A stretch of 64,000 nt of DNA, from IMG/VR virus record IMGVR_UViG_3300048928_000047, one strand, 5' to 3'. The position numbers and the translations under genes are program-made. This stretch comes from a virus. This document shows positions 29,989 to 64,000 of this stretch, piece after piece. Position 1 is the first letter of the stretch. Every line of letters begins with the position of its first letter. The notes beneath the pieces were generated by a model that was given only the letters and a program-made list of their open reading frames with translations, was not told where the DNA came from and searched no databases.

Positions 29989-29990
29989 GA

Positions 29991-30974: not shown

Positions 30975-30991
30975 GTTTTTCTCCTCTTTTG

Positions 30992-31052: not shown

Positions 31053-31055
31053 GCA

Positions 31056-31471: not shown

Positions 31472-31481
31472 AATTTTCTCC

Positions 31482-32520: not shown

Positions 32521-32530
32521 CAACCCCTCC

Positions 32531-33364
32531 TTACTTATTTAAGATATTGCTTTCAAAGAAATGCTCCAAGAACTCAAAGTTCTCTTCATATTTCTCAATG
32601 CTGTTGTAACCTTCTGCCAGGCAACCAAAGTAGAGCGCTTCTACATAAGACAGAGGAAGCTGGCTGAGTGCCACCTTAAAGGTGATTTCACTCTGGCTCA
32701 TCAGGTACTTGATCGGACGCACCAGGCACTTAGCATCAGGTTCATCCTTGATCATCTGCACAAATGCAGAGACACTGTTAATGTCGCTGAAATTCAGCGC
32801 CGCTTCTGTGTTTGCCTCATTGCCGTTATACTTGGCAAAGTACAGGAAAAATGTATCGTTAGTTACATTCTCTGCATCCAGGATCTCAATCAGCTTGTCC
32901 TCATGGGTTCCGGTGATATTCACGTCATCAATGAAGATCAGATTTTTGTTACCCCAAAAGTCTTTATTGATAGAGAACGTGTCGCCATCGATCAGAGCCT
33001 TACGATCTTCCTTACTCAGGAAGCCGTAGTCATTAATGTAACTCACTTTACGGTGGATGATATCCCACTCAATTGGGTAAGCACCACCCATACGGTTCAT
33101 CAGATAATTGAGATGGTCTACAAAATGCTCTGACAACACCGTAGCTGCGTTTTTAACGTAGTTGTAAGGCGAAGGTATTACCACGAACTGTTCGTTCAAC
33201 AGACGCAGTTTGTGGGCTTCATAGAAGCTCTCTGCCAGTTTACGTCCCATACGCTTCGCAGCTTGATTACTACCGAATTTCAGACGTGAGTAGTCGGCAG
33301 TATTAAAACAAGCAACAGTCAGGTCGCTAAAGACATGGGCGAAGTGTTGTTTCTGGTTACGCAT
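32531..33364 (-). CDS. type I phosphoribosyltransferase (PRTase)
   Basis: PRPP-binding loop NLIFIDDVNITGTHEDK (four hydrophobic residues, DD, xx, TG, xT). 277 aa. Confidence 0.7.
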   Translation of the reverse strand: MRNQKQHFAHVFSDLTVACFNTADYSRLKFGSNQAAKRMGRKLAESFYEAHKLRLLNEQFVVIPSPYNYVKNAATVLSEHFVDHLNYLMNRMGGAYPIEWDIIHRKVSYINDYGFLSKEDRKALIDGDTFSINKDFWGNKNLIFIDDVNITGTHEDKLIEILDAENVTNDTFFLYFAKYNGNEANTEAALNFSDINSVSAFVQMIKDEPDAKCLVRPIKYLMSQSEITFKVALSQLPLSYVEALYFGCLAEGYNSIEKYEENFEFLEHFFESNILNK

Positions 33365-34016
33365 TGATGATTTCTCCTTTTTGCAGTTTCTCTAACAGGT
33401 CTTCTGGGTTCTTAATGTGACAGAAATTAAATCCTGCGTCAACACATCTCCCATCAAAAATTTCACTATCTCCGATGTGCAATACTTCGTCGGGTTGAAG
33501 CTGGCGATTGTAAGATCGAAGAACTGTCTGGTCAAAGAAGCGTTTATCAGGTTTACACATTTCCCAGTTATCAGAAAAGTGCATGAAAGCCCAGAAAGGC
33601 ATACGATCAAAACCGACAGCCTGCGCCAGAATATATCCAGGAATGAAGTTGGTATTGCTCTTAATGCTCAACTCATAATCCATCGACAGATTAATCAGTC
33701 GGTCAACCAAGTCCATACTCAGGTGTGGTGGATTCACCAGGAAAGCCATCTCAGAATACTTTTTCATCTGCTCTGCTGATTTTCGATCTACACCCAAGTG
33801 TCTACCCAACGCCCACCATGCGTGATATTGATCACCACACAACATGTGTTCAGCATTCATATCCAACACACGTTTGACGTGTGCATAGGCAGCATCTGCC
33901 TCTTCTGGAGCTACTCCGCCAAAGTAAGAAATAATTTCTGTACGCTCGTAAGCATAACGAGGATTAGCAGTGATCAGGGTATTCCATACGTCAAAAGAGA
34001 TGTGTTTGATTGTCAT
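33357..34016 (-). CDS. HAD-superfamily hydrolase
   Basis: Start moved to MTIKHISFDVWNTLI (motif I of the FDxxGTL type). Motif IV VLHIGDSEIFDGRC. 8-nt overlap with the PRTase gene. Confidence 0.6.
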   Translation of the reverse strand: MTIKHISFDVWNTLITANPRYAYERTEIISYFGGVAPEEADAAYAHVKRVLDMNAEHMLCGDQYHAWWALGRHLGVDRKSAEQMKKYSEMAFLVNPPHLSMDLVDRLINLSMDYELSIKSNTNFIPGYILAQAVGFDRMPFWAFMHFSDNWEMCKPDKRFFDQTVLRSYNRQLQPDEVLHIGDSEIFDGRCVDAGFNFCHIKNPEDLLEKLQKGEIINA

Positions 34017-34017
34017 A

Positions 34018-34623
34018 TTAAGCCCACCATGCGTCAAGGTTTAAGTTACTGTCTACTATCACTTGTTCTACGTGATAGCTCTTCATTTCGATTCCATTTA
34101 ACAGAAGCATACCATACACCTCATTGAAACGCAACTTATCTTCTGCGGAATAAAGACGAGCATTATAGAAGCGATAATCCACCTCTTCGGCATTGGAAGA
34201 GATACGAAAGAAGCCAGTGTCAATTTCCGGCGCACTTGCCGGAGTCTTGATATGCACTTCCCCGTAATGTTCTTTGCTCAGATCCATAAACATTACACAC
34301 GCAACGTGCCGGAACATCTGCTCCAGCTTATAACGTACTACTTTGAATCCAGCCTCTTCGAGTTTTGCTACACAATCCAACATAAGATCTGTCTCAATAC
34401 CCGCCTGGTATTTAGTGAGCATACGGTCACGCTGTGACTGAGTATCACGGTGCAGATCGATTGTGGTACATTTTGCACCAATCAATTTTGCTGCCTCCAT
34501 GAGTTGTTCACTATTTACATCTGCCAGGGTGAGATGAAAGTGCGCTTTCCACACCTTCTCCACTGGAACACCAAGAGGTTCACCGTTGGTGCGTGGCAGG
34601 TTGACGATCAGCTTATGTTTCAT
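34018..34623 (-). CDS. hypothetical protein (one HxTx motif; possible degenerate 2H-phosphoesterase, unproven)
   Basis: 201 aa. AHFHLTL fits HxTx, but the second candidate VHIKT does not. First gene of the overlapping operon ending with the macro gene. Confidence 0.5.
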   Translation of the reverse strand: MKHKLIVNLPRTNGEPLGVPVEKVWKAHFHLTLADVNSEQLMEAAKLIGAKCTTIDLHRDTQSQRDRMLTKYQAGIETDLMLDCVAKLEEAGFKVVRYKLEQMFRHVACVMFMDLSKEHYGEVHIKTPASAPEIDTGFFRISSNAEEVDYRFYNARLYSAEDKLRFNEVYGMLLLNGIEMKSYHVEQVIVDSNLNLDAWWA

Positions 34624-54688: not shown

Positions 54689-54915
54689 CCTGATATTATC
54701 CGATATTTTAAAAATTTTCGTTTTTAGAATAAGGGGTGTGGGGTTCAATATTTCGGAGCCTCACCTCCAGCACACCGTTAAATCCAGAAAGACAGATTGA
54801 AGTTCTTCGCACCATATTTAAATAAATTTCTAACCAATCTTGTAAGTTATTGTAATAACTTAGGAATCTATTTTCATCTCAATCAGAATAATATTTAAGT
54901 CAAGTTTGAAAGCAA

Positions 54916-55125
54916 CTCCCAAATTATTTAAAACTTTTCTCCAAGTTTCTGGATAAATATTGCAAACCAAAATTTAAAATTTCTCTGAATTATTTAAAAC
55001 TTTTCTGCATCTTATCACAGAAAAATCCAAAACCAAAATTTAAAATTTTCAAAAAATTCCCCAATTATTAAAAGTTTTTGAACTTTTCGATCTGCATTTT
55101 TCCAAAAGCAAAATTTAAAATTCTC
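54916..55125. repeat. three tandem 66-75-bp AT-rich repeats
   Basis: Motif AATTATTTAAAACTTTTCT at 54922 and 54988, with a variant at 55063. Motif CCAAAATTTAAAATTT at 54967, 55033 and 55108. Spacings are 66 and 75 bp. No ORF. Confidence 0.75.
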
Positions 55126-55140
55126 AAAAATTTGCGGGAT

Positions 55141-55240
55141 GAGCATGATAAGCATTCTCATTTGCAATTGATAATCATTCTCGTTTAAAAAGTTGAATGA
55201 GAATCATTCTCATGTACAGATCGGAATGAGACTCATTCGC
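55141..55240. promoter_or_regulatory. array of four Fur-box-like palindromes
   Basis: 19-mers at 55141, 55164, 55193 and 55222 (GAGCATGATAAGCATTCTC, GCAATTGATAATCATTCTC, TTGAATGAGAATCATTCTC, CGGAATGAGACTCATTCGC). They match GATAATGATAATCATTATC at 15, 15, 14 and 12 of 19 positions (hand count). Spacing 23, 29 and 29 bp. Confidence 0.45.
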
Positions 55241-55468
55241 ATTTGTGATTTGTGGAATGACGGGCAGGTCCGGTGATTGTCTCGCCAGCCCCGTTCCCCT
55301 GTCCATGTATACATAATAACACAACCAAATCACGACGCAAGCACTTTATTCAATCTTTACAAAACTTTTTTGAGACGAGCTACCGGCGATCCACCTTCCA
55401 ACCAGTGCCCTGGTATGTTAGCCCCGCCTTTTCGCCGTGGGGTGGCGTGTCCTCTTCTTTATGTGATG

Positions 55469-55498
55469 AGTATAGCCCGACTTGCGCCAGGCTGTCAA
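55469..55498 (-). promoter_or_regulatory. leftward early-type promoter with no obvious ORF downstream
   Basis: Minus strand: TTGACA (55498-55493), 18-nt spacer, TATACT (55474-55469). Then CATCACATAAAG, the initial sequence shared with the rightward promoters at 58362, 62523 and 63080. Confidence 0.5.
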
Positions 55499-55500
55499 CA

Positions 55501-55770
55501 CTATTCTTTATCTTTTTGTGCGTCCAAGACACCACGCCAGAAAGATATCCGATCAGGTCGATAAGAGCATGACCGATAGGCAGCGCCGCAAATATCCACC
55601 ACGGCAAGCCGTAGCGCCTTTACGCCGTGATCGTAGGCTATCCGATTAGATACAGGGGAAGAATGAAGGTTTAACACTTCCAGGACGGTTAGCCCCGTTT
55701 CGCTTGCTACCTGGTGAACGGTTCCACCTTGCCAGCCTAAAACCTGCATCAATCTTTCTGTATTGGTCAT
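55501..55770 (-). CDS. small early protein (GWQGGTVHQV motif)
   Basis: GAGGAT SD. Own promoter and leader hairpin (55788-55841). The C-terminal third overlaps an alternative frame (55380-55607) that encodes a TM helix, so the true 3' end is uncertain. Confidence 0.5.
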   Translation of the reverse strand: MTNTERLMQVLGWQGGTVHQVASETGLTVLEVLNLHSSPVSNRIAYDHGVKALRLAVVDICGAAYRSCSYRPDRISFWRGVLDAQKDKE

Positions 55771-55787
55771 TGTTCGATCCTCGTTAT

Positions 55788-55841
55788 GCCTCCACCGTGG
55801 CGGCTTGATAACTACTATATACTAATGAAGGGAAAACGCAA
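55788..55841 (-). promoter_or_regulatory. leftward early promoter plus leader hairpin
   Basis: Minus strand: TTGCGT (55841-55836), 16-nt spacer, TATAGT (55819-55814). Then ATCAAG plus GC hairpin GCCGCCA-CGG-TGGAGGC (55804-55788). Confidence 0.5.
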
Positions 55842-56080
55842 GAAAAAATTTTCGTGATTTAGGCTCCCAGGTGATCGAAAAATTTTGCTCGCAAGTTTCA
55901 GGATCTCGATTTTTTCAGCTAACGAGTTTTACCAGGTCGAAAAATTTTTGTAACGAGTTTTACGTAAGAGGAAAATTTCCGAAACGAGATCCACCTAATC
56001 GAAAAAATTTTGTGGGAACTCCCAGGTGAAAAAATTTTTTATTTTTCAATCACCAGGGAAATATATATAAAAAATTTTAT
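55840..56080. repeat. array of about 8 phased A(n)T(n) tracts / ~31-bp iterons
   Basis: A5-6T4-6 tracts centred near 55848, 55882, 55912 (inverted), 55945, 55975, 56007, 56035 and 56074. Flanking words recur: CCCAGGTG, CAGGTCG, AACGAG. The array ends 10 nt before the -35 at 56090. Confidence 0.7.
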
Positions 56081-56089
56081 GAGTGGTAG

Positions 56090-56118
56090 TTGACAGCATA
56101 GTGGCGGCGATCTAATAT
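56090..56118 (+). promoter_or_regulatory. first rightward early promoter
   Basis: TTGACA 56090-56095, 17-nt spacer, TAATAT 56113-56118. Confidence 0.65.
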
Positions 56119-56169
56119 TACTACACAAGGCGAGGCGATAGGCGCACCGCATACCAGGAAGAAAAGAAA

Positions 56170-56373
56170 ATGGCAACATTACACGTAGTAGTAACTAACG
56201 AAACAATCAAAGTGATCGTGAACGGTTTTTGTGAGAAGGAAGAGGAAAACGATTTCAACGGCTATTGCATTATATCCGCTTTCCTTGATTCCCTGGTGGA
56301 AATGTGCGTGATCACTCATGAGCAGCGCGAAGCGAAGATCAACCGCCTGAAAAAAGTTTTAGATATTGAATAA
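56170..56373 (+). CDS. early small protein
   Basis: 67 aa. First ORF after the 56090 promoter. Confidence 0.55.
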   Translation: MATLHVVVTNETIKVIVNGFCEKEEENDFNGYCIISAFLDSLVEMCVITHEQREAKINRLKKVLDIE

Positions 56374-56379
56374 AAGCGC

Positions 56380-56441
56380 TTGACAGATTCATCCAGTAAC
56401 GTATAATTCACTTCATAGGCGGCGGGAATGGTTCCCGCGCC
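56380..56441 (+). promoter_or_regulatory. early promoter plus conserved leader hairpin (copy 1)
   Basis: TTGACA 56380-56385, 16-nt spacer, TATAAT 56402-56407. Hairpin GGCGGCGGGAATGGTTCCCGCGCC at 56418-56441. Confidence 0.7.
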
Positions 56442-56462
56442 AAATTAAAGAGAGATAACCAA

Positions 56463-56996
56463 ATGTCTGATATCATTGAAACTTTCAACTTTTCCCGTAA
56501 CAACATTGATTTCACTGTTAACGTTGTATGTGCTTACACGTTTGACCAGTTCGGGGATCAGTGGAAAATGACAGACACGCACGAGGGCGGCGTAACTATT
56601 ACTAACCCTGATGCAGATCGCAATAGCTTTAAATATGCTATCCCTCAGCAGTATACGCTGGCAGAACTCACGGCAGACTATGCGAAAGCAGGACGTGCTA
56701 ACCCGTCCCGTGAAGCTTACGAAAGTTTACAGCGTCAATTAGCGCGTGACATTACCGCCAATGACTACTATTTCACGGTTGACGCTACCGCCGGATCTCA
56801 TACCCTGTTAGACGGTGAAGTAGTATGTTGCGGTTTTGATTATTCCTACGATGATGAAGGATCACTCTTAGACACGGCAGAAGAGATCTGGAAAGCGCAC
56901 GGCGGTGAAGAGGACGCAATTGAAGCCGCGATCAGTGCAGCGCGTGATCTCCTGGATGGTGTAGACGTGTTGAAAAGTATTGTTGAAAACGTCTAA
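56463..56996 (+). CDS. early acidic protein
   Basis: 177-aa ORF after promoter/hairpin copy 1. Confidence 0.6.
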   Translation: MSDIIETFNFSRNNIDFTVNVVCAYTFDQFGDQWKMTDTHEGGVTITNPDADRNSFKYAIPQQYTLAELTADYAKAGRANPSREAYESLQRQLARDITANDYYFTVDATAGSHTLLDGEVVCCGFDYSYDDEGSLLDTAEEIWKAHGGEEDAIEAAISAARDLLDGVDVLKSIVENV

Positions 56997-57002
56997 ATAG
57001 TG

Positions 57003-57031
57003 CTTGACCATAGCCCCGAAAGGGGCTATCA
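57003..57031 (+). promoter_or_regulatory. early promoter with a perfect hairpin in the spacer
   Basis: TTGACC 57003-57008, 17-nt spacer, TATCAT 57026-57031. ATAGCCCC-GAAA-GGGGCTAT (57009-57028) fills the spacer, so it may also terminate the upstream unit. Confidence 0.55.
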
Positions 57032-57062
57032 TTCCCCTACACCAACAGAAGAGAGTAAGAAA

Positions 57063-57311
57063 ATGGAAAGAGCAATTATCGGTAATATCGGAATCCATAA
57101 AGAAAACTTTTTCATTACTGATTTTATTGATGCGCCTTTATGGTGGCATGAGCGCGGCAGGCAGAAAACCGCGAGCGGCTACGGTACAAAAATTGAGACA
57201 CGCAATAAAGTCAAGTATAAAGGGCGCTTGCGCCGTGTTTATTGTGACGTGTACAGCAATTCCGGTTATTGCTACATTATCGTGAAAGGTGAAAAAATTA
57301 CGGTACGATAG
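57063..57311 (+). CDS. early small protein
   Basis: Start moved to MERAIIGN, downstream of the 57003 promoter. 82 aa. Confidence 0.55.
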   Translation: MERAIIGNIGIHKENFFITDFIDAPLWWHERGRQKTASGYGTKIETRNKVKYKGRLRRVYCDVYSNSGYCYIIVKGEKITVR

Positions 57312-57371
57312 TTGACAAGGCCCAGGAATGGGGCTAATATTATCTCAAAGGGCGGGAATGGTTCCCGCGCC
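57311..57371 (+). promoter_or_regulatory. early promoter plus leader hairpin (copy 2; one extra G in the loop)
   Basis: TTGACA 57311-57316, 17-nt spacer, TAATAT 57334-57339. Hairpin GGGCGGGAATGGGTTCCCGCGCC at 57349-57371. Confidence 0.7.
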
Positions 57372-57390
57372 TCCTCAAAGGTGAAAGATT

Positions 57391-57537
57391 ATGAAACAAC
57401 GTGTAATGAAAATCCACACCAACACCGGATCAACCGTTGTAACTCCCTCCCGTTTCGCTATCGCGAGCCGTTGCGCCCGTTTGAAACGTGAGTTAAAATC
57501 TAACCAGGGCGCGGGGTTTACCAGATGGGGGAAATAA
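57391..57537 (+). CDS. 48-aa basic protein (not in ORF track)
   Basis: MKQRVMKIHTNTGSTVVTPSRFAIASRCARLKRELKSNQGAGFTRWGK. It is the only ORF placed correctly after promoter/hairpin copy 2. Confidence 0.5.
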   Translation: MKQRVMKIHTNTGSTVVTPSRFAIASRCARLKRELKSNQGAGFTRWGK

Positions 57538-57544
57538 TAACGTA

Positions 57545-57805
57545 ATGAAACCATTGTTTCTAAACTGTAAAGGCGAGGTTATCGCCTTTATGGATTCAAC
57601 AGCCTACGATCTCGCACGATATGCAATGACGTTTAAAGAAAACGTTTACAAGCGGAGCGGGGGCGGGTATACTATCTTTAATCACCGTAACGCCGAAGTA
57701 AAGGACGTTACAAAGGTTGAGATCGGGAAGTATCGGATCGGGTGGCTACCTTCAAAAGATGCGGGGAGCCTTTACCGTGTATGCGAGTTAGTAACGAGGG
57801 GTTAA
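57545..57805 (+). CDS. early small protein
   Basis: 86-aa ORF. Confidence 0.5.
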   Translation: MKPLFLNCKGEVIAFMDSTAYDLARYAMTFKENVYKRSGGGYTIFNHRNAEVKDVTKVEIGKYRIGWLPSKDAGSLYRVCELVTRG

Positions 57806-57808
57806 CCT

Positions 57809-58357
57809 ATGGGGCGTGAGCATGTTATTCAATCGTGGGTTAAACATGACGAGGATGATTGGCGGGTGATACCGCCTGATCTCCTGGATGACGCAAGCGG
57901 CTACAGTGGCGAGCAAGTGGGGCAGCGCGTAGCGCGTAACAACGGGAACACGGCGATCCGCGCCACGGTTCCAGGTTGGCTACCAAATGGACAGGCAGAC
58001 ATTGCAGGGGCGGCAGATCCGGCAGATGACGCGAAAGGCGATCCCCTGCTGATGGTAGATCCGGCGTTTAAAACGCTGTTAGAGTACCCTGGGAAGGTCG
58101 CAGCGCTTACGAAAACATATGAGGCGGGAAAGATGCCTGAGAGCCTTTATCGTAGCGCCTTGCGAGTCCTGGACGTGAAAGCAGACAAGGCGCAGCGCAA
58201 GATCGATAAGCTGGCGGGATCTGTACTCCTGGAGGAAGAGAACGCGCCGGAGGAAGAGCCGGAGCTTGATCCGGTAGTCCTGGAAGAGGACGCGATCACG
58301 CCGTATCATCCGACACCGGAAGAGGCAGCGCAAGCCCTACGAAATTATTTTAAATAA
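57809..58357 (+). CDS. early acidic protein
   Basis: 182 aa. Acidic C-terminal half (EEENAPEEEPELDPVVLEED). Confidence 0.55.
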   Translation: MGREHVIQSWVKHDEDDWRVIPPDLLDDASGYSGEQVGQRVARNNGNTAIRATVPGWLPNGQADIAGAADPADDAKGDPLLMVDPAFKTLLEYPGKVAALTKTYEAGKMPESLYRSALRVLDVKADKAQRKIDKLAGSVLLEEENAPEEEPELDPVVLEEDAITPYHPTPEEAAQALRNYFK

Positions 58358-58361
58358 GGGG

Positions 58362-58420
58362 TTGACAAGCGCCCAGGAGGGGGCGCATAATTCATCACAT
58401 AGGGCGGCAATGATGCCGAC
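58362..58420 (+). promoter_or_regulatory. early promoter (GC palindrome in spacer) plus variant leader hairpin
   Basis: TTGACA 58362-58367, 18-nt spacer, CATAAT 58386-58391. Spacer palindrome GCGCCC...GGGCGC. Leader TCATCACATAGG plus CGGCA-ATGA-TGCCG (58405-58418). Confidence 0.65.
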
Positions 58421-58437
58421 ACCAAAGAGGATGTACC

Positions 58438-58641
58438 ATGTTAAAAGTTTTCATAGTGACAAGTAACGATGATAAATATGTTGAATATCGTTTGACTATC
58501 ATCGCGAAGAGTGAAGAGCAAGCGCTCAAAATGGCGGCGACCTATACGCAAAAAGAGATCACCGATCTGGAGGTTATCGAATCGGCAGACGTGGATCAGG
58601 TTGGCATTGTTGACAATTCTATAATTTTCTACGGGGTGTAA
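58438..58641 (+). CDS. early small protein
   Basis: 67-aa ORF after the 58362 promoter. Confidence 0.55.
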   Translation: MLKVFIVTSNDDKYVEYRLTIIAKSEEQALKMAATYTQKEITDLEVIESADVDQVGIVDNSIIFYGV

Positions 58642-58643
58642 TT

Positions 58644-58757
58644 ATGTTAATCAAAAAGGCAAACAGTCCGATCACTGGTTTAATCAATGCTCTGATCCTG
58701 GCGGTTCCTGCGTGGGCGATGATTGCGCTTGTTTACGTTACCTTAACCCGCTTTTAA
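58644..58757 (+). CDS. 37-aa single-TM peptide (not in ORF track)
   Basis: MLIKKANSPITGLINALILAVPAWAMIALVYVTLTRF. Starts 2 nt after the upstream stop. Confidence 0.4.
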   Translation: MLIKKANSPITGLINALILAVPAWAMIALVYVTLTRF

Positions 58758-58774
58758 ATTATCGCAAAATTAGC

Positions 58775-58836
58775 TTGACAGCAGATTAAATCAGGCGTAA
58801 ATTACTAATCAAGGCGGCGGGAATGGTTCCCGCGCC
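58775..58836 (+). promoter_or_regulatory. early promoter plus leader hairpin (copy 3)
   Basis: TTGACA 58775-58780, 17-nt spacer, TAAATT 58798-58803. Hairpin at 58813-58836 is identical to copy 1. Confidence 0.7.
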
Positions 58837-58858
58837 ACACCAAAGAGAGAGAAACATC

Positions 58859-59020
58859 ATGATCCCAATGACTACCCGTGAAGCCGCTCGCAACGTAGCC
58901 CGTAAAGTTAACGCCGTTGCACCTGCTAAACTTAAAGCACCAGTAAAAGGCGCAGACGGTTGGATCTTCCCTGGCTTGTCTCATGCCGATAACAAAGGCA
59001 CTTTGAGCCTGAAAAAATAA
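58859..59020 (+). CDS. 53-aa basic early protein
   Basis: Start moved to MIPMTTREAARN, downstream of hairpin copy 3. Confidence 0.5.
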   Translation: MIPMTTREAARNVARKVNAVAPAKLKAPVKGADGWIFPGLSHADNKGTLSLKK

Positions 59021-59022
59021 AG

Positions 59023-59059
59023 TTGACTTTTCGTTATGCCGCGCTAAAATAGGCGGCAT
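59023..59059 (+). promoter_or_regulatory. class-II promoter cassette
   Basis: TTGACT 59023-59028, 16-nt spacer, TAAAAT 59045-59050. The -10 lies in the loop of ATGCCGC...GCGGCAT (59036-59059). Followed by AGAGAAGAGAAACC. Confidence 0.6.
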
Positions 59060-59093
59060 AGAGAAGAGAAACCAAAAACCAGGAGCCAACGAA

Positions 59094-59282
59094 ATGCGCC
59101 ATTTAACAAATGATCCTAACCGTTCCCATGTTATCAGTATGAGTAACGGGCAAACCGTAACATGTTATGATCATTCAGATGAAAGCATTGTTGAGTTAAC
59201 GCAACGTTACTATGAAGGAAAGTATAATCTCAATTGCTCAATAGTAAATAAAGCAGGTGAAGAAATTTATAAAACCCGTTGA
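59094..59282 (+). CDS. early small protein
   Basis: 62 aa. AGGAG SD. Its TGA stop lies inside the next TTGACT -35 box. Confidence 0.55.
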   Translation: MRHLTNDPNRSHVISMSNGQTVTCYDHSDESIVELTQRYYEGKYNLNCSIVNKAGEEIYKTR

Positions 59283-59316
59283 CTTTCTGTAATGGCTGTT
59301 AGATAATGCAGCCATT
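59279..59316 (+). promoter_or_regulatory. class-II promoter cassette
   Basis: TTGACT 59279-59284, 17-nt spacer, GATAAT 59302-59307. The -10 lies in the loop of AATGGCTG...CAGCCATT (59291-59316). Followed by GAAGAGAGAAACC. Confidence 0.6.
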
Positions 59317-59352
59317 GAAGAGAGAAACCAAACAATCTAACGAGGTGATAAG

Positions 59353-59574
59353 ATGGTTACATTTGCAATTATTTCCCTGGTGGCGGGTAACGTGTTTATC
59401 AATGACACTTTCCAGGCTGATGACAGCAAGCCAGGTGAGATCAGCGCGGTTTATGCTGAATGTAAAGCCGCCGAGCGTATGTTATCGCCTTGTATGCTTA
59501 TGTCCGAGCGTAACGATGGGCGGATCGTGTTTACCAATGTTGAATCCTGGTATCAATTGGTAGTAGAAAAATAA
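59353..59574 (+). CDS. early small protein (N-terminal hydrophobic segment)
   Basis: 73 aa. GAGGTG SD. Preferred over the overlapping 59306-59563 frame, which lacks an SD. Confidence 0.5.
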   Translation: MVTFAIISLVAGNVFINDTFQADDSKPGEISAVYAECKAAERMLSPCMLMSERNDGRIVFTNVESWYQLVVEK

Positions 59575-59587
59575 GTTCAATAACCAG

Positions 59588-59645
59588 TTGACAGCAACAC
59601 CGAAAAGCATTAAATTATTCATCAAGAGGCGGGAATGGTTCCCGC
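59588..59645 (+). promoter_or_regulatory. early promoter plus leader hairpin (copy 4)
   Basis: TTGACA 59588-59593, 17-nt spacer, TAAATT 59611-59616. Hairpin GGCGGGAATGGTTCCCGC at 59628-59645. Confidence 0.7.
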
Positions 59646-59666
59646 TTAAACAGAAGAGAAAATATT

Positions 59667-60035
59667 ATGACTACTATCCTCGAAATGAAACGCGCAGAAC
59701 TGGCAAGTGTGATCCGTGATATCGCAGAAACCGAGCGTCAGATCCGCAACTTCTCTTATGAAGTAAGCGAAGAGGAATATGATGCAATCCTGGATGACTG
59801 CTACGAAGATATAGACGTTTGCGGATCACTGTTTAGTCCGTCCTATGCTCTGAAAAATCTTGATCCGGTGGCGTACCGTTGCGGCAAAAGTGACTATGAA
59901 GGGACGATAGATCTTGACGAAGTGCCAGCCTATCAGGAGCTAACGAGCGACCTGGAAGATCTGGAAGAGCGCCGCGATAGCTTAGAGGAAGAGATCGCAG
60001 ACCTGGAAGCCGAAGAGGAAGAAAGCGAAGAATAA
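59667..60035 (+). CDS. early highly acidic protein
   Basis: 122 aa. C-terminus DLEDLEERRDSLEEEIADLEAEEEESEE. Confidence 0.6.
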   Translation: MTTILEMKRAELASVIRDIAETERQIRNFSYEVSEEEYDAILDDCYEDIDVCGSLFSPSYALKNLDPVAYRCGKSDYEGTIDLDEVPAYQELTSDLEDLEERRDSLEEEIADLEAEEEESEE

Positions 60036-60048
60036 TTTTAAAAACAGG

Positions 60049-60108
60049 TTGACACGGTAAACGGTTTAAATTAAATTAGTATTCAAGGCGGCGGGAATGG
60101 TTCCCGCC
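60049..60108 (+). promoter_or_regulatory. early promoter plus leader hairpin (copy 5)
   Basis: TTGACA 60049-60054, 17-nt spacer, TAAATT 60072-60077. Hairpin GGCGGCGGGAATGGTTCCCGCC at 60087-60108. Confidence 0.7.
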
Positions 60109-60130
60109 TTACAATGAAAAGGTTATCAAA

Positions 60131-60505
60131 ATGAAATCAGCAGAAAAAATCAAGTCTTACATCCTGGCAGCAATTGAGTTTTACGATCATAAAGAAGACT
60201 TAATCACCAGCGAAGAGGATAAGATCCGCGAACTAATGCGCCGCTTTAATGCTGAATACTGGTACTATGAAAACCAAGTATACTATAAAGGCAACATGCT
60301 CAAAGCGATGGCCTCATGGTTGCAGGGTTTACCGTCCGACATTAATCACGCCTATTATTACAATGAGATTGATTCTCTTTTGATTGAGTGGGGTTATCTC
60401 AAGCCTACCAGCCGCGAGGCAACGATTGACCGCGAGCGGGATAATTACTGGCTTTACCTGGCGGGATCACTGATCGCGGTTGCAAAGTCTCACAACGTAG
60501 CGTAA
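60131..60505 (+). CDS. early protein
   Basis: 124-aa ORF after hairpin copy 5. Confidence 0.6.
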   Translation: MKSAEKIKSYILAAIEFYDHKEDLITSEEDKIRELMRRFNAEYWYYENQVYYKGNMLKAMASWLQGLPSDINHAYYYNEIDSLLIEWGYLKPTSREATIDRERDNYWLYLAGSLIAVAKSHNVA

Positions 60506-60519
60506 GCTAACACAACAAC

Positions 60520-60537
60520 GGCGGGAACTTCTCCCGC
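60520..60537 (+). promoter_or_regulatory. intercistronic hairpin, variant of the leader element
   Basis: GGCGGGA-ACTTC-TCCCGC. Same GCGGGA/TCCCGC stem but no promoter upstream. Lies between 60131-60505 and the 45-aa ORF. Confidence 0.5.
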
Positions 60538-60567
60538 TAACATTGAAACTAAAACGAGGGTTTAAAA

Positions 60568-60705
60568 ATGAATGGTTCCAACAACGTAGAAAAAATGGGT
60601 AACGGTAAACCGCGCAAGGCATGGAACGAAGATACCAGCCGCAAAGGGGATAAGCGCAACAAAACGCGCCGCGACCGCACCGAGAAACGGGGCTGGATTG
60701 AGTGA
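60568..60705 (+). CDS. 45-aa very basic peptide (not in ORF track)
   Basis: MNGSNNVEKMGNGKPRKAWNEDTSRKGDKRNKTRRDRTEKRGWIE. GAGGG SD. Followed by a terminator. Confidence 0.45.
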   Translation: MNGSNNVEKMGNGKPRKAWNEDTSRKGDKRNKTRRDRTEKRGWIE

Positions 60706-60710
60706 TAAGA

Positions 60711-60736
60711 GAAGGGGCGCACAATAGCGCCTCTTT
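60711..60736 (+). terminator. terminator-like hairpin (GGCGC-ACAATA-GCGCC core)
   Basis: Core 5-bp GC stem extendable with A-T and G-U pairs, followed by TTTCGCTTTC. Confidence 0.5.
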
Positions 60737-60770
60737 CGCTTTCTAACGTGTTTTAACCGGAGGTTATCCA

Positions 60771-60956
60771 ATGACATTGGAACAAATAGAAAAGGCCATA
60801 GAACAGCGCGGAGGGCGCTTAAAAGCGCGTTATCGTGATCAATGGGGCTTTATGGTTAATGGTGTGATCCTGGGGATTGATAACGGTGAGATTTTGATTG
60901 ACAATCTGAAAAATCGTGTTAAGCCTGATCAGGTAGTGGCTATCAATCATATTTAA
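60771..60956 (+). CDS. early small protein
   Basis: 61 aa. GGAGG SD. Confidence 0.55.
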   Translation: MTLEQIEKAIEQRGGRLKARYRDQWGFMVNGVILGIDNGEILIDNLKNRVKPDQVVAINHI

Positions 60957-60973
60957 TTGATAGGAAATAACTA

Positions 60974-61025
60974 TTAGACATTGCGCCCAGGTTGGCGCAT
61001 AGTGATCACATGAGGCGATAACCGC
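60974..61025 (+). promoter_or_regulatory. early promoter (weak -35, GC palindrome in spacer) plus short leader hairpin
   Basis: TTAGAC 60974-60979, 18-nt spacer, CATAGT 60998-61003. Spacer palindrome TGCGCC...GGCGCA. Leader GATCACATGAGG plus GGCG-ATAAC-CGCC. Confidence 0.45.
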
Positions 61026-61039
61026 CGGAGGAGGGATAA

Positions 61040-61426
61040 ATGAAAAAGATTATCATCGCCGCTATCCTGGCGGCAGTAAGCCTAAATGCAACAGCAGCAG
61101 ACACCGAGATCGACGCAATGAGCGCAAGCCGTGATCTCAGAGCCAGCATTGAAAAGATGCTGATAGTTTCGGGCGACACTAACGCAACGTTACGATCTTA
61201 CAACCTATCTAAAACTTTTGAGAATGCATTAAATTCTCAAATGATACCCGTTCTCAATAATAATCCTGATGCATCATGCGAGCTTATAGCGGCGCGGGTG
61301 GCACAGAATGCGCGGGGCAATTATGCGCCTTATCAGGTTAATCCCCTGATGACAAGAGCGATTGAAGATATGATCGGCAAAATGACCGTTTACACGATGG
61401 CGCAATGTTACTATTTAAAGAGTTGA
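61040..61426 (+). CDS. early secreted (periplasmic) protein
   Basis: Signal peptide MKKIIIAAILAAVSLNATAA. GGAGGAGGG SD. The TGA stop lies inside the next TTGACA box. Confidence 0.6.
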   Translation: MKKIIIAAILAAVSLNATAADTEIDAMSASRDLRASIEKMLIVSGDTNATLRSYNLSKTFENALNSQMIPVLNNNPDASCELIAARVAQNARGNYAPYQVNPLMTRAIEDMIGKMTVYTMAQCYYLKS

Positions 61427-61451
61427 CAAGCGAGCGGATCACGGTTAAGCT
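61423..61451 (+). promoter_or_regulatory. early promoter
   Basis: TTGACA 61423-61428, 17-nt spacer, TAAGCT 61446-61451. Confidence 0.5.
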
Positions 61452-61479
61452 GTAATGACAGTAACAGCAGGGGCAGAAA

Positions 61480-61770
61480 ATGGAACAGGCAAAATCTTTA
61501 TTGATGTTTAGCGGTGTAAGCAGTGATGCGGTGACGGTTGAGAGACACCAGGACGGCGACACGCTGATCGCAATGTTACGCGATGGTAACAACGGAGCGC
61601 TTTTGATCCTCAGTCTGAAAGAAGTGAGGAAAGGTTATTATTCGTTAGCTTATCATTTGATAACTAATGATAATGAAACAAGCCAGGATTTTTCCTTGCC
61701 TTTTCCGGCAAATTGTGCGCCGTCTTTCGTGGCTGCAATTATCAATGATGTTTTCCAGGTGGTGGCATGA
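61480..61770 (+). CDS. early protein
   Basis: 96-aa ORF. Confidence 0.55.
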   Translation: MEQAKSLLMFSGVSSDAVTVERHQDGDTLIAMLRDGNNGALLILSLKEVRKGYYSLAYHLITNDNETSQDFSLPFPANCAPSFVAAIINDVFQVVA

Positions 61771-61853
61771 TGGAACGTGACACTAAAATAAAACTTGCTT
61801 TCGCCGCCGTTTTATGGATAATGGTTTTTGCGGTGGTTATCATGAGAGGGTAA
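61767..61853 (+). CDS. 28-aa single-TM peptide (not in ORF track)
   Basis: MMERDTKIKLAFAAVLWIMVFAVVIMRG. ATGA overlap with the upstream stop. Confidence 0.35.
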   Translation: MMERDTKIKLAFAAVLWIMVFAVVIMRG

Positions 61854-61857
61854 ACCA

Positions 61858-61977
61858 ATGAAACGTTATCAAGTGGAATACAGCACAGTAAACCCTGCCT
61901 ATGAGGAAGGGGCGAAAATGTGCAAAATTGCATCTTACTTTTTAGCGCTCATTGTATTATTTTCTTTACTATCCTGA
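61858..61977 (+). CDS. 39-aa peptide with C-terminal TM segment (not in ORF track)
   Basis: MKRYQVEYSTVNPAYEEGAKMCKIASYFLALIVLFSLLS. Starts 4 nt after the previous stop. Confidence 0.3.
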   Translation: MKRYQVEYSTVNPAYEEGAKMCKIASYFLALIVLFSLLS

Positions 61978-62005
61978 AACATCGTTTAAACCTGGAGATC
62001 AGAAA

Positions 62006-62239
62006 ATGGCTAACGTGTCAATCAAAAAAGCAGCACTTGACTATGCGACCGTAAGACAACAGCGCCACGCTATCGACACCGCACAGCGTTTACTAAATGA
62101 GATTGCTTCTCAATTAGGTACAGCACAAATTCCAGCCAATGATCACCTGATGGCGATCCGTAATTTGATAGATGAGAAAGATTCTCAATTGTTCGACAAA
62201 GAGCAAGATTTATACTATATCGTTTCACGCCTGGATTGA
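62006..62239 (+). CDS. early small coiled-coil protein
   Basis: Start moved to MANVSIKKAAL (GGAGATCAGAAA SD). Confidence 0.5.
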   Translation: MANVSIKKAALDYATVRQQRHAIDTAQRLLNEIASQLGTAQIPANDHLMAIRNLIDEKDSQLFDKEQDLYYIVSRLD

Positions 62240-62247
62240 TTCACAAA

Positions 62248-62285
62248 GGCGGGAGCTTGTCAAGGGTTCCCGCAACTATTTTTCA
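62248..62285 (+). terminator. terminator that reuses the leader-hairpin stem
   Basis: GGCGGGA-(13-nt loop with inner CTT/AAG stem)-TTCCCGC, followed by AACTATTTTTCATTTTT. Confidence 0.6.
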
Positions 62286-62522
62286 TTTTTGCGTTATGCA
62301 AAAAAGTGAATTTAAGGCGATCAGGGAGAGAATGATCAAAGGTACGGGAAACGGTTAGCGCCCCGTGTAGGGCGTTTTAGAGCGTTTTACGGGGTATTGA
62401 CTTTTTCCGAAACGCTCAAAGCGTCTTAAATTTAGTTTCACCGTGTGATTATGTGCATACGAGTGCATTTCTATGCAATAAAGTGAATATTGTAAAGATG
62501 ATGAATATTGCATTCATCGCTA

Positions 62523-62550
62523 TTGACTACCGCGCCCGATCTGCTATGAT
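62523..62550 (+). promoter_or_regulatory. early promoter
   Basis: TTGACT 62523-62528, 16-nt spacer, TATGAT 62545-62550. Leader TTATCACATAGGGCGGGGC. An inverted repeat GATGAAT-(5)-ATTCATC lies just upstream (62497-62515). Confidence 0.6.
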
Positions 62551-62605
62551 TTATCACATAGGGCGGGGCAATAACGCAACGCCAGAAAATCCGAAGGATT
62601 GCATC

Positions 62606-63070
62606 ATGAATAAATTTTGCGTAGGTCAAAAGGTTATCGGTTTAAACGAGCGTAAGATCCACGTTGTAACCGCCTTACGTGGCGAGGGCGTGATCGTCCT
62701 GGATGGCAAAATTGAGGACGTGGAAAGCGCCTATCAGATCGAACCTGAATTTATGGATAAGACCAACTATTTTTATCATCATTCAAAATTTGCCGAAGCT
62801 ATCGAAATGATGAATGATGGCTTTTATGCCTACCGTGGATCAGTAGAGGAATATGCGTACCTGAAAAGTTTAGTAACAACAGAACATCCGAGCGCTTTTA
62901 TGTTAAGTGCGCTTTCTATGTGCCAGGGGCTGATTGACACCGCCGCCGCTAAAATTGAGCGCGGGTTAGCGGTAAAGCGTACCGCCGAGCACAATTTAGC
63001 GCAATGGGATCGGTTGACGCTTGATCATCACTTCCCATTCCTTAACCCTGAAAATCTGACAGACTACTAA
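62606..63070 (+). CDS. early protein
   Basis: Start moved to MNKFCVGQK, downstream of the 62523 promoter. The longer ORF would span the promoter. Confidence 0.55.
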   Translation: MNKFCVGQKVIGLNERKIHVVTALRGEGVIVLDGKIEDVESAYQIEPEFMDKTNYFYHHSKFAEAIEMMNDGFYAYRGSVEEYAYLKSLVTTEHPSAFMLSALSMCQGLIDTAAAKIERGLAVKRTAEHNLAQWDRLTLDHHFPFLNPENLTDY

Positions 63071-63079
63071 ATATAATAG

Positions 63080-63141
63080 TTGACGCGCCCAAGGAAAGGG
63101 CGCATAATTCATCACATAGGACGGCGGGAATGGTTCCCGCC
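63080..63141 (+). promoter_or_regulatory. early promoter (GC palindrome in spacer) plus leader hairpin (copy 6, perfect 8-bp stem)
   Basis: TTGACG 63080-63085, 17-nt spacer, CATAAT 63103-63108. Spacer palindrome GCGCCC...GGGCGC. Leader CATCACATAGG plus GGCGGGAA-TGG-TTCCCGCC at 63123-63141. Confidence 0.7.
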
Positions 63142-63159
63142 TTAATGAGAGAGATTATC

Positions 63160-63384
63160 ATGTTTAACTTAGACCAACTGGCAGCAGCGATTGAGAAAGC
63201 AGGTGATGCGAAATATGGCGTTAAAGATCACTATTTCATCGGTCAATATCCTGATGGCACTTATTACGGTGTGTTGTCTAACAAGGTGAAAAGCCGCAGC
63301 AGCGCCGCGCAGATGAGAACGCCGGAATGGTTCGAAAGTAAAGGAATTAAAGCGATCAAAGTGATGAAACGAGGCCACAAATGA
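63160..63384 (+). CDS. early small protein
   Basis: Start moved to MFNLDQLAAAIEK, after hairpin copy 6. Confidence 0.55.
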   Translation: MFNLDQLAAAIEKAGDAKYGVKDHYFIGQYPDGTYYGVLSNKVKSRSSAAQMRTPEWFESKGIKAIKVMKRGHK

Positions 63385-63617
63385 AAACGAAAAGCATTCT
63401 CATTAAGAAAAAATTCCCTGATCGTATGTGGGAGATCAGCGAAGTGATCCACGCTGGAACGGCGGAGGAATACAAGCGCCTGATCGGATATATCCGCGAA
63501 ACAAAAAGCGGTTTTATCTGGACTCATTCAGGCTTGAACCGTGAGAGCGCCAGCTATCACCCAACAAAGGCGCAAGCCTTGCGCGGTTTAAAGCTGGTAC
63601 ACCAGCAACAAAAATAA
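63381..63617 (+). CDS. early basic protein
   Basis: 78 aa. ATGA overlap with the upstream gene. Confidence 0.55.
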   Translation: MKTKSILIKKKFPDRMWEISEVIHAGTAEEYKRLIGYIRETKSGFIWTHSGLNRESASYHPTKAQALRGLKLVHQQQK

Positions 63618-63629
63618 ATCGAATTATTT

Positions 63630-63698
63630 CGCCCTGGAGCTTGATCTCCCTGGGGCGTTTTGCTATCCTTAATTTGTGGGGCGGCAATGATGCCGACC
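63630..63698 (+). promoter_or_regulatory. fused terminator/promoter plus variant leader hairpin
   Basis: Hairpin CGCCC..GGAG-CTTGAT-CTCC..GGGCG followed by TTTT. TTGATC (63641-63646) sits in its loop, then a 17-nt spacer and TATCCT (63664-63669). Leader hairpin CGGCA-ATGA-TGCCG at 63682-63695. Confidence 0.5.
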
Positions 63699-63716
63699 AC
63701 TAACGAGGAAAACAAT

Positions 63717-64000
63717 ATGCAACCTTTACAACTCCTTTCAACTTTACGCGCTATCGCTAACAACACTCTGATCGCTTGCCAGCGCCAGGAGTTTAAGCCG
63801 GAATTCATCTACAAGATGCATAACCAGCAGTTAGCAACAATTGAGGGCGCGATCAAGGGGTATCAGTTAGGGGCGAAAGTGACCGCGAAATATAAAGCGG
63901 AGATAAAGAAAATAACGCTTGCGCCAATGAAGGAAAAGAGCTACTATCTTATCACTGAGCAGGTGAAAGGTGGTGTAAGCCAACTGACCAGCGCCATTGA
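63717..64000 (+). CDS. early protein, 3' end outside window
   Basis: ATG 63717 with GAGGAAAA SD. Frame stays open to the last base of the window, so it is absent from the ORF track, which needs a stop. Confidence 0.55.
   Translation, partial: MQPLQLLSTLRAIANNTLIACQRQEFKPEFIYKMHNQQLATIEGAIKGYQLGAKVTAKYKAEIKKITLAPMKEKSYYLITEQVKGGVSQLTSAI

Follow-up and report, generated by a model that had tools for sequence, protein, structure and literature searches.

A repeated leader stem-loop in the early-promoter cassettes of a phi92-like Klebsiella phage

Promoter-early stem-loops (PeSLs) have been described in the T4-like phages RB49/phi1, PST and nt-1 (Arbiol et al., 2010, PMC2839356; Comeau et al., 2014, PMC4122927) as cassettes in which a sigma-70 early promoter, a GC stem-loop and a Shine-Dalgarno (SD) sequence with its ATG adjoin ORFan genes (PMC2839356, PMC4122927). 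Subclasses are distinguished by the position of the stem-loop, 'downstream of the -10' being one of them (PMC4122927, PMC2839356), and a crossover inside the loop has been recorded in RB49 (PMC2839356, PMC4122927). PeSLs are also associated with mini-circles, excised when neighbouring cassettes recombine and sought by inverse PCR. In a reporter assay the PeSL211/210 stem-loop cut lacZ expression about as much as rrnB T1 (Arbiol et al., PMC2839356). The present report concerns a related family of GC-rich hairpins in IMG/VR virus record IMGVR_UViG_3300048928_000047, a 64-kb stretch of DNA (the whole of which is called the window) from a large, virulent, phi92-like (Stephanstirmvirinae) Klebsiella myophage. 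Six copies with an identical 17-nt core, each lying between a sigma-70 promoter and a small gene, are well supported as transcribed 5'-leader stem-loops of modular early-promoter cassettes. The element is best filed as a transcribed-leader class of the PeSL kind in non-T4 phages.

The window cassettes and the published PeSLs have in common a repeated near-consensus sigma-70 early promoter, a GC-rich stem-loop and an SD-ATG segment within ~100 bp, a setting in ORFan-rich variable regions and a division into subclasses by stem-loop position. Both also lie at indel or replacement junctions between related phages, with crossover in the stem-loop. With RB49 in particular the window cassettes share TTGACA..TAnnnT, a CATCAA start region and the SD-ATG end. 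They differ in belonging to a phi92-like myovirus and not to a T4-like phage, and in the placement of the stem-loop, which here lies inside the predicted transcript (~+3 to +27), beyond its start, whereas that of RB49 is found in the promoter spacer or over the -10 hexamer. A covariance model of the leader hairpins (R1, described below) scores RB49 only weakly because the RB49 stem-loops are inside the promoter. A further difference is that the hairpins described here have no U tract, so that the terminator role proposed for PeSLs would fit them poorly. No paper describing these leader hairpins, or mapping transcription starts in the phage groups concerned, was found in the literature search; the only elements listed in the rV5 paper are sigma-70 promoters and terminators (PMC3606486).

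The window shows ~80% nucleotide identity to the Klebsiella phages KP2025, KP13-26, phi1_175008, FKP3 and FBKp34; the records of three of these relatives are filed under Stephanstirmvirinae (phi92 group), and that of KP2025 carries no subfamily. The exact 17-mer GCGGGAATGGTTCCCGC occurs six times in the window, always on the + strand, with starts at 56422, 57352, 58817, 59629, 60091 and 63124, compared with no match in 100 dinucleotide shuffles, and a one-mismatch relative lies at 60521. All six copies fall within 56-64 kb, a region that is mosaic with respect to the relatives. The arms form a perfect 7-8-bp inverted repeat around a 3-bp centre, and all six loops are TGG. An earlier first-pass annotation, made from this sequence alone, had reported a six-copy hairpin family; this core observation is confirmed, and the hairpin coordinates given there match the extended hairpins to within 1-2 nt.

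All six units read rightward (+ strand), and the genes they serve are small ORFans without a Pfam match. Unit 1 has a promoter at 56380-56407 (TTGACA-N16-TATAAT, 12/12 consensus matches) and the leader hairpin GGCGGCGGGAAtggTTCCCGCGCC at 56418-56441 (core 56422-56438; -16.6 kcal/mol, z-score -2.7), ahead of gene 56463-56996. The promoter of unit 2 (57312-57340, TTGACA-N17-TAATAT) holds a separate GC hairpin in its spacer (57319-57335), and its leader hairpin (57350-57371, core 57352-57368) precedes gene 57391-57537. Units 3, 4 and 5 have TTGACA-N17-TAAATT promoters at 58775-58803, 59588-59616 and 60049-60077, followed by leader hairpins at 58813-58836 (core 58817-58833; z-score -3.3), 59627-59647 (core 59629-59645; z-score -3.8) and 60090-60108 (core 60091-60107) ahead of genes 58859-59020, 59667-60035 and 60131-60505, respectively, the last of these belonging to the phi92 gp236 family. 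Unit 6 (63080-63108, TTGACG-N17-CATAAT) again has a GC hairpin in the spacer (GCGCCCaaggaaaGGGCGC, 63085-63103) in addition to the leader hairpin (63123-63141, core 63124-63140), which is ahead of gene 63160-63384.

The promoters match the TTGACA-N16-18-TATAAT consensus at 10-12 of 12 positions. The form proposed in the first-pass annotation, TTGACA-N16/17-TA(T/A)A(A/T)T, holds for five units and is slightly off for the sixth, at 63080, while the ..CA(A/T)(A/G)G element that it placed before the stem is present in all six. The core stem begins 11-15 nt past the -10 hexamer and 20-25 nt ahead of the start codon, and A/C-rich sequence directly follows each hairpin on its 3' side. Identity over the six units is 100% in the 17-mer, 31% in the promoter spacers, 37% in the post-hairpin leaders and 38% in the upstream 30 nt. 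The start is predicted at a purine 7-8 nt past the -10 hexamer, the A of ..TCA.. or ..ACA.., which puts the hairpin in the transcript with 2-5 nt unpaired at the 5' end (1-7 in the window). The predicted leaders fold at -13.1 to -16.6 kcal/mol with z-scores of -1.4 to -3.8, four of the six beating nearly all shuffles and two not doing so. By prediction the SD region is mostly unpaired and the start codon partly so (0.34-0.93 unpaired).

This architecture is widely shared among large enterobacterial myoviruses and is not private to the window phage. Early promoters were predicted without reference to hairpins, from a strong sigma-70 match, an SD sequence and a downstream open reading frame (ORF); nucleotides +1 to +38 were folded, and a fold of -9 kcal/mol or lower was counted as a leader hairpin. 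Such a hairpin is present at 61 of 104 predicted early promoters (59%) at nine loci from five phage groups, versus 12% of 1350 random 38-mers from the same regions, although the nine loci are related and a p-value for this comparison therefore overstates their independence. Leader hairpins were found in four close Klebsiella relatives and in phi92, phAPEC8, Kashira, 4MG, the jumbo phage G17 and the Felix O1-like phage DE7. In the locus of Serratia phage Kashira (Vequintavirinae), exact GGCGGGAAtggTTCCCGCC occurs six times, on four occasions following a predicted promoter, and the variant GCCGGGAGaggTTCCCGGC is also present, and Escherichia coli phage 4MG, also of the Vequintavirinae, has the same stem with a tag loop (GGCGGGAAtagTTCCCGCC). 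About a dozen units of G17 (Asteriusvirus) follow the pattern TATAAT-agtttACATCAA-GGGGAGAA-(a)tgg/tag/atga-TTCTCCCC-ACTAA..SD..ATG, and six units of DE7 contain GGGGAGGGaatgaCCTTCCCC or close variants. Covariance model R1, built from 21 triloop examples (alignment A5), gave 49 matches at E < 1e-3 in 218 kb, all in sense orientation to the gene they precede; 48 are in early regions, the sole exception being the leader of the terD promoter in the window (25500-25540, minus strand). About ten more matches were obtained in 12 kb of phi92.

Near-identity of the copies had led the first-pass annotation to argue for a sequence-specific factor, and alignment with related phages had been named there as the means of separating covariation from strict identity. 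The argument is not supported in that form, since the relatives show mostly covariation (compensatory changes, paired indels and varying loops) and several stems per genome. Thus, KP2025 contains GGCGGGAA, GGGGGAG and GCGGGGAG, and G17 contains GGGGAGAA, GAGGGGAA and AGGGGAAA. Orthologous leaders are those with the same promoter and the same downstream gene. The leader of gene 60131 reads GGCGGGAAtggTTCCCGCC in the window, GGGGGAGcggTTCCCCC in KP2025, GGCGGGAAttgTTCCCGCC in KP13-26 and GCGGGAGttgTTCCCGC in FKP3, and among more distant homologues GGCGGGGAAtggTTTCCCGCC in phi92, GGCGGGAAAtggTTTCCCGCC in muut and KKP_3264, GGCGGGAAtagTTCCCGCT in phAPEC8 and GGCGGCAatggTGCCGCC in PsgM04F; nepoznato has no such cassette in front of its gp236 homologue, and in Av-05 the promoter has no hairpin. 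In the leader of gene 63160 two adjacent pairs are swapped (C-G/G-C to G-C/C-G) relative to FBKp34, KP2025 and KP13-26, and an FBKp34 unit shows a G-C to U-A change plus a G.U pair. Taken over all orthologous leaders, the changes comprise C-G to G-C, G-C to C-G, G-C to U-A and A-U to G.U, together with the gain or loss of whole pairs (paired indels), and the loops vary among tgg, cgg, ttg, tag, tga and atgg.

In the 45 distinct model-aligned sequences 96.7% of the cells are paired and both-side changes occur at seven of eight pairs; such model sets were selected or aligned as hairpins, so that it is the orthologous comparisons that carry weight. Each observed measure was reached by at most one of 500 shuffles (by none of 500 for three of the five measures), and slid controls were all far below the observed values. 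Cells with G.U number 17 and cells with A.C 4. When the predicted early leaders were folded on either strand, the sense strand gave the better fold in 20 discordant cases and the antisense strand in nine (p=0.003). The excess of G.U and the better folding of the sense strand indicate that pairing is kept in the sense strand, pointing to RNA and not to a symmetric DNA site. Loops in the set of 45 are TGG in 22 sequences, TAG in seven, CGG in four and TTG in three, the others including TGA, ATGG and AAAC. The stem top is nearly invariant, with one pair A-U in 44 of 45 sequences and the next A-U or G.U in 44 of 45. UCAA(G) directly before the stem is also conserved and remains adjacent to it even where the distance to the -10 hexamer shifts by 3 nt. 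Across phage groups, unusually high conservation is seen in the GAA/UUC stem top, in the U-N-G loop and in the UCAA(G) ahead of the stem. As judged from these alignments, selection appears to act on an RNA fold and not on one fixed word or a DNA palindrome, the element being kept mainly for its fold and not for its exact letters.

The identity of the six window copies is explained in part by recombination of the cassettes with each other. FKP3 contains a chimeric unit (15288-15380) in which promoter and start region correspond to window unit 56380, and the post-hairpin leader and gene to unit 57312; the crossover lies inside the shared 20-nt GCGGGAATGGTTCCCGCGCC, and window positions 56442-57351, with two genes (56463-57311), are missing, a clear-cut case of a deletion or insertion from one cassette to another. 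In FBKp34 the promoter at 57312 is joined to a -10 hexamer and leader of the 58775 type with five genes missing, and in KP2025 and KP13-26 an unrelated gene replaces the gene between the promoter at 57004 and hairpin 57352. Further ends of homology blocks, all at cassettes, are found at 58797, 59012-59023, 59263-59278, 59577/59654, 62274-62277 and 63073-63125. The identical copies can be accounted for by shared ancestry, selection against single stem mutations and cassette recombination acting together.

On balance, the evidence leans towards a leader stem-loop of modular early-promoter cassettes that acts in cis on early mRNAs and serves also as a recombination site, as opposed to a sequence-specific operator. 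The elements of the cassette are, in order, a sigma-70 promoter, a ..CA(A/T)(A/G)G start region, a GC-rich hairpin with its G-rich arm first, an A-rich unstructured stretch, an SD and an ATG. Host RNA polymerase would start 2-5 nt ahead of the stem, and the hairpin would fold independently, leaving the ribosome-binding site free. It could then act in cis as a 5'-proximal structural cap that raises or standardises the lifetime and translation of early mRNAs, and it could serve transcripts reading through from an upstream unit as a 3' barrier. The repeated stretch of 17-24 identical nucleotides is at the same time, as a by-product, a crossover site at which early-gene modules are shuffled. Such a cis-acting cap is the most likely function.

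5' stem-loops can stabilise E. coli mRNAs, and the T7 phi10 leader is another example. The ompA and papA 5' stabilisers resemble the present element in being stable 5'-proximal hairpins on mRNAs of an enterobacterial host, set apart from the ribosome-binding site; they differ in that 0-1 nt are unpaired there, whereas 2-5 nt are predicted to be free here. The primary stabiliser papers (Emory, 1992; Bouvet, 1992; Arnold, 1998; Bricker, 1999) are among the references of PMC3997798. Of the four roles that the first-pass annotation had listed, a 5' stabiliser or structural leader fits best, although this fit is weakened by the 2-5 nt predicted to be unpaired.

Several points weigh against a cap and keep confidence in it moderate. 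RppH and RNase E need at least two unpaired 5' nucleotides and prefer at least three (PMC8833179), and RNase E scans past simple stem-loops (PMC9943677); with 2-5 nt predicted to be unpaired, protection by occlusion of the 5' end would thus be partial at best. Recasting the hairpin as an obstacle to RNase E scanning, which might have rescued the stabiliser, was rejected on the ground of the same bypass of simple stem-loops (PMC9943677). The start site used is itself a prediction, and about 40% of the early promoters at the nine loci have no leader hairpin. Stability does not explain why the weak A-U and A-U(G.U) pairs are nearly invariant at the top of the stem, nor does it account for the preference for a U-N-G loop, the conserved UCAA(G) or the fact that all six window loops are TGG amid randomised flanks. 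The covariation counts (alignments A5 and A7) were made on sequences chosen or aligned as hairpins, a bias from which the orthologous comparisons are free. An RNase III site was rejected, as that enzyme needs about two helical turns and the stems are only 7-11 bp. The placement of the G-rich arm first may simply give a purine-rich initial transcribed sequence, which in work on the T5 N25 promoter reportedly favours promoter escape.

The features that stability leaves unexplained count in favour of a specific RNA-binding factor. The reading preferred in the first-pass annotation, in which the hairpin and UCAAG form a recognition tag for a sequence- or shape-specific factor of host or phage, nevertheless appears rather unlikely. 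Candidates for the factor would be regulators of translation, proteins that protect against RNA decay during host shut-off, timed shut-off factors and antiterminators. The 17-mer is fully identical between flanks of 31-38% identity, exact GGCGGGAAtggTTCCCGCC recurs in Kashira and the same stem in 4MG, members of a different subfamily (Vequintavirinae), and the stem top is nearly invariant with mostly U-N-G loops (TGG 22/45, TAG 7/45). In addition, UCAA(G) stays beside the stem despite the 3-nt change in the -10 distance, and the geometry is poor for simple occlusion of the 5' end. However, different stems coexist in one genome (KP2025, G17), orthologous leaders change by compensation and their loops change, and identity can also be obtained from shared ancestry and recombination.

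Host genomes do not suggest a regulon read by a host factor. A blastn search of one unit against 5,426 E. coli genomes gave no match, and the exact 19-mer gave 45 scattered single matches in 185,579 species genomes, mostly in GC-rich bacteria, with no recurrent Enterobacteriaceae locus among them; the two of these loci that were inspected lie within apparent coding sequence. A host regulon was rejected on the basis of these two scans. A scan of IMG/VR for GCGGGAANNNTTCCCGC was uninformative, the matches listed being single copies in unrelated contigs, and Rfam at gathering thresholds gave no match over the whole window. UCAA(G) and the G-first GAA-UNG-UUC hairpin occur in at least four lineages of large virulent enterobacterial myoviruses (Stephanstirmvirinae, Vequintavirinae, Asteriusvirus and Felix O1-like phages). 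It is a tentative suggestion that they are a shared 5' tag of early mRNAs read by a common factor. That factor could belong to the host (polymerase, RNase or part of the ribosome) or be an early protein passed widely between phages. Early phage transcripts would in this way be marked for protection during host shut-off or for timed silencing, and the role as a recombination site would be secondary.

An antitermination site had been a separate proposal of the first-pass annotation. The lambda nut site consists of boxA and boxB. The window hairpins are similar in being short GC hairpins in early leader RNA of a phage that uses host polymerase. They differ in having a triloop or tetraloop of variable sequence in place of a conserved GNRA-like pentaloop and in being present in many copies, one per small gene, and no boxA-like element was noticed on reading the leaders, although no formal search was made. 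The accompanying claim that every unit ends in a terminator did not hold, as a canonical scan of 55400-64000 gave nine terminator-like sites against 9.4 expected. With loops that vary and no terminator excess to override, a nut/boxB-like role is disfavoured, and the same two observations on boxA and terminators count against the RNA-binding factor.

Most unit ends instead show a GC hairpin within or across the next promoter. This second class lies in the 17-nt spacer of the next promoter (57013-57026, 57319-57335, 58369-58386, 60983-60998 and 63085-63103) or straddles its -10 hexamer (59036-59059 and 59291-59316), so that the end of one unit overlaps the promoter of the next, and it matches the commoner PeSL subclasses. 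The PeSL authors proposed that the stem-loop attenuates or terminates upstream transcription, or is a protective 3' hairpin for the upstream mRNA, in which case its position past the next start site would be incidental. Applied to the leader hairpins, this function is improbable. It would agree with the presence of a GC hairpin at nearly every early-gene junction (in the spacer, over the -10 hexamer or in the leader), with the fact that, at units 56380, 58775, 59588 and 60049, the interval from the preceding stop codon to the following gene contains no hairpin but this one, and with the lacZ reduction by PeSL211/210 to about the level of rrnB T1 (PMC2839356). On the other hand, 44 of the 45 leader hairpins have no U tract, and a terminator 5-30 nt past its own start would cut short the transcripts of that unit too. 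A promoter-embedded hairpin accompanies the leader hairpin in units 57312, 58362, 63080 and 63641, and the spacer hairpins have the C-rich arm first whereas the leader hairpins have the G-rich arm first, which marks them as two different classes. Intrinsic termination was rejected, since at most three T occur in the 8 nt past the stem in 44 of the 45 distinct hairpins; only the element at 62249-62273 qualifies.

A double-stranded DNA palindrome at +5 to +25, acting as the operator of a dimeric repressor or as a supercoiling-sensing cruciform, is very unlikely. The perfect 7-8-bp inverted repeat with its 3-bp centre is situated where a bound protein would block elongation, and conserved arms with a variable centre are also expected of an operator. 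However, symmetry is kept on the sense strand only (17 G.T cells against 4 A.C), folding is stronger in the sense than in the antisense strand, several different palindromes occur in one genome, and a protein of fixed specificity would find both of its half-sites weakened by compensatory changes. The operator option of the first-pass annotation is accordingly disfavoured on the G.U excess and the greater stability of the sense fold.

The motif had been noticed before, as a repeated word, and has been mislabelled as a promoter in at least one record. In the phAPEC8 record JX561091, GTAGGGCGGCAATGGTGCCG and GTAGGGCGGGAATAGTTCCC are labelled 'putative promoter determined with PHIRE'; these 20-mers are the 5' halves of the leader hairpins GCGGCAatggTGCCGC and GCGGGAAtagTTCCCGC and come directly after a MEME 'host dependent promoter'. 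Over 9713-13562 of the record, seven PHIRE 'promoters' are the 5' halves of leader hairpins with a sigma-70 promoter just upstream. The element was called a promoter on account of the repeated word, and this annotation is likely to be misleading. It is the same element as that described here; its hairpin nature, transcribed position, covariation and role in recombination are absent from the annotation. A stem with a 3-nt loop superficially resembles the promoters of the N4 virion polymerase. That the motif is itself a phage-specific promoter, such as an N4-type hairpin promoter for a non-host polymerase, is hardly credible in spite of the JX561091 labels on GTAGGGCGGCAATGGTGCCG and GTAGGGCGGGAATAGTTCCC, because PHIRE finds repeated 20-mers only, the motif always lies 10-15 nt past a near-consensus sigma-70 promoter, the 64-kb window is devoid of giant ORFs and an RNA-polymerase Pfam match was obtained for none of the six that reach at least 450 amino acids (largest 1014), and the rV5 paper argues for host polymerase throughout (PMC3606486).

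Further elements related to the leader stem-loops are present in the window. The variant CGGCA-ATGA-TGCCG reported in the first-pass annotation was found at both 58405-58418 and 63682-63695. The first belongs to a rightward unit (58362-58423, TTGACA-N18-CATAAT) with a spacer hairpin (58369-58386) and the leader hairpin GGGCGGCAatgaTGCCGACACC (58402-58423) ahead of gene 58438-58641; its stem type is the dominant one in phAPEC8. The second belongs to a rightward unit at 63641-63700 (TTGATC-N17-TATCCT) with leader hairpin GTGGGGCGGCAatgaTGCCGACCAC (63676-63700) and an ATG at 63718. Reuse of the same stem in an intergenic hairpin and a terminator was also borne out, at 60520-60538 and 62249-62273. 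The former, GGCGGGAacttcTCCCGCT (+), lies between genes 60131-60505 and 60568-60705 and is preceded only by the weak promoter-like TTGCAA-N17-TAAGCT, while in FBKp34 and KP2025 the hairpin type of 60520 follows a TTGCAA-N17-TATAGT promoter. The latter (+) is an intrinsic terminator with a GCGGGAG / TTCCCGC stem followed by AACTATTTTT. Different leader hairpins are found in the first rightward unit (56090-56150, TTGACA-N17-TAATAT, hairpin 56130-56150), ahead of gene 56170-56373, and in the rightward unit at 62523-62583 (TTGACT-N16-TATGAT, hairpin 62562-62583).

On the minus strand, terD, terC and the 55770 gene are each preceded by a promoter unit of this layout with a stem of another sequence, as had been stated, and the two ter genes are Pfam TerD and TerC. 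The terD promoter (25508-25570, TTGACT-N16-TAGAAT) is followed by ACATCAAAG and the leader hairpin GGGGAAGAGcggTTCTTCCCC (25528-25508), a 30.4-bit match to model R1; that of terC (30992-31052, TTGACT-N16-TAAAGT) by the leader hairpin AAGAGGGAGataggCTCCCTCTT (31014-30992); and that of the 55770 gene (55788-55841, TTGCGT-N16-TATAGT) by AGTTATCAA and the imperfect hairpin GCCGCCAcggTGGAGGC (55804-55788). The TerD-domain gene is at 24876-25502 (-; Pfam E-value 1.5e-28) and the TerC-family gene at 29994-30974 (-; 5.2e-41). Both are homologues of tellurite-resistance and membrane proteins, each with its own promoter and leader hairpin.

In every window copy the loop and closing base contain an ATG (GGGAATGGTTCCC), at 56428, 57358, 58823, 59635, 60097 and 63130. 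It opens the mini-ORFs MVPAPN*, MVPAPPQR*, MVPA* and MVPALQ*, is carried by 24 of 45 hairpins across phages, and is in frame with the downstream gene in two units (58823-59020 and 63130-63384). A functional upstream ORF was rejected, given that the ATG is inside a hairpin of -13 to -17 kcal/mol without usable SD spacing, that the frames are inconsistent and that 21 of 45 hairpins have no ATG. The hairpin ATG is judged to be a by-product and not a start codon.

The remainder of the window comprises baseplate and tail-spike genes (1-11 kb), minus-strand replication genes (family A DNA polymerase, primase-helicase and UvrD-like helicase) together with terD and terC, a rightward block ending with an AAA ATPase gene (49.6-54.7 kb), a repeat-rich non-coding stretch (54.7-56.1 kb) and, from 56.1 kb, the rightward run of small genes without a Pfam match that holds the hairpin family. 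The non-coding stretch (54700-56090), between divergent transcription units, contains iteron-like direct repeats: three ~61-nt copies at 54922-55123, three 29-nt units at 55146-55226, three tandem 31-nt units at 55921-56013 and many A/T tracts of the GAAAAATTTT type. A role as an origin of replication or as an array of protein-binding sites is possible. On the minus strand, a strong promoter (55498-55469, TTGACA-N18-TATACT) points into this stretch, with no convincing ORF downstream.

Some observations on other phages bear on the cassettes. The start-region motif (A)CATCAA(G/A/C), 7-10 nt past the -10 hexamer, is common to early promoters of unrelated phage families; it was seen in RB49 (minus strand, 15000-34600), G17, Kashira, DE7 and the window (58804-58812), with or without a leader hairpin after it, and TAAATTACTAATCAA is letter-identical in the window and DE7. 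Early ORFans are common to different subfamilies, phi92 gp247 being 96% similar to rV5 gp170 and G17 gene G17_00010 similar to a gene of Cronobacter phage CR3; the annotation of phi92 gp227 likewise cites such sharing. These similarities would fit an exchange of early-gene modules across phage families. Several records of ~146-151 kb with non-enterobacterial host assignments (Campylobacter phages A150, A145, C3 and A110a, Acinetobacter phage ABPH49 and Pseudomonas phage PsgM04F) contain the same cassette, with an E. coli-type promoter and leader and a gp236 homologue of ~52-60% amino-acid identity. Either the hosts may have been mislabelled or the relatives of these phages are unusually broad. 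In KP2025 (PP919962), early ORFs of 48-97 amino acids (3974-4264, 4346-4492, 6764-6985 and 11796-12089) are named 'DNA ligase', 'portal protein', 'radical SAM protein' and 'ribosomal protein L20', names that from the size and position of the ORFs look like annotation artefacts.

The interpretation given in the first-pass annotation is thus retained as regards a repeated family of promoters with leader hairpins heading early genes, and not as regards factor recognition inferred from identity. The comparison extends the idea of PeSLs, in which a self-contained cassette of promoter and stem-loop serves both the expression and the shuffling of ORFan genes, from T4-like phages to several other groups of large therapeutic-type phages of Klebsiella, E. 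coli, Serratia and Salmonella, and it defines a class whose stem-loop belongs to the mRNA leader. It also corrects the annotation habit by which leader hairpins are recorded as PHIRE 'promoters' and supplies a simple covariance model for locating early transcription units in these genomes. The compact natural promoter-plus-leader part could find use in expression design. If the stem top and loop are read by a factor, they would offer a handle on the control of the early program in these little-studied phages.

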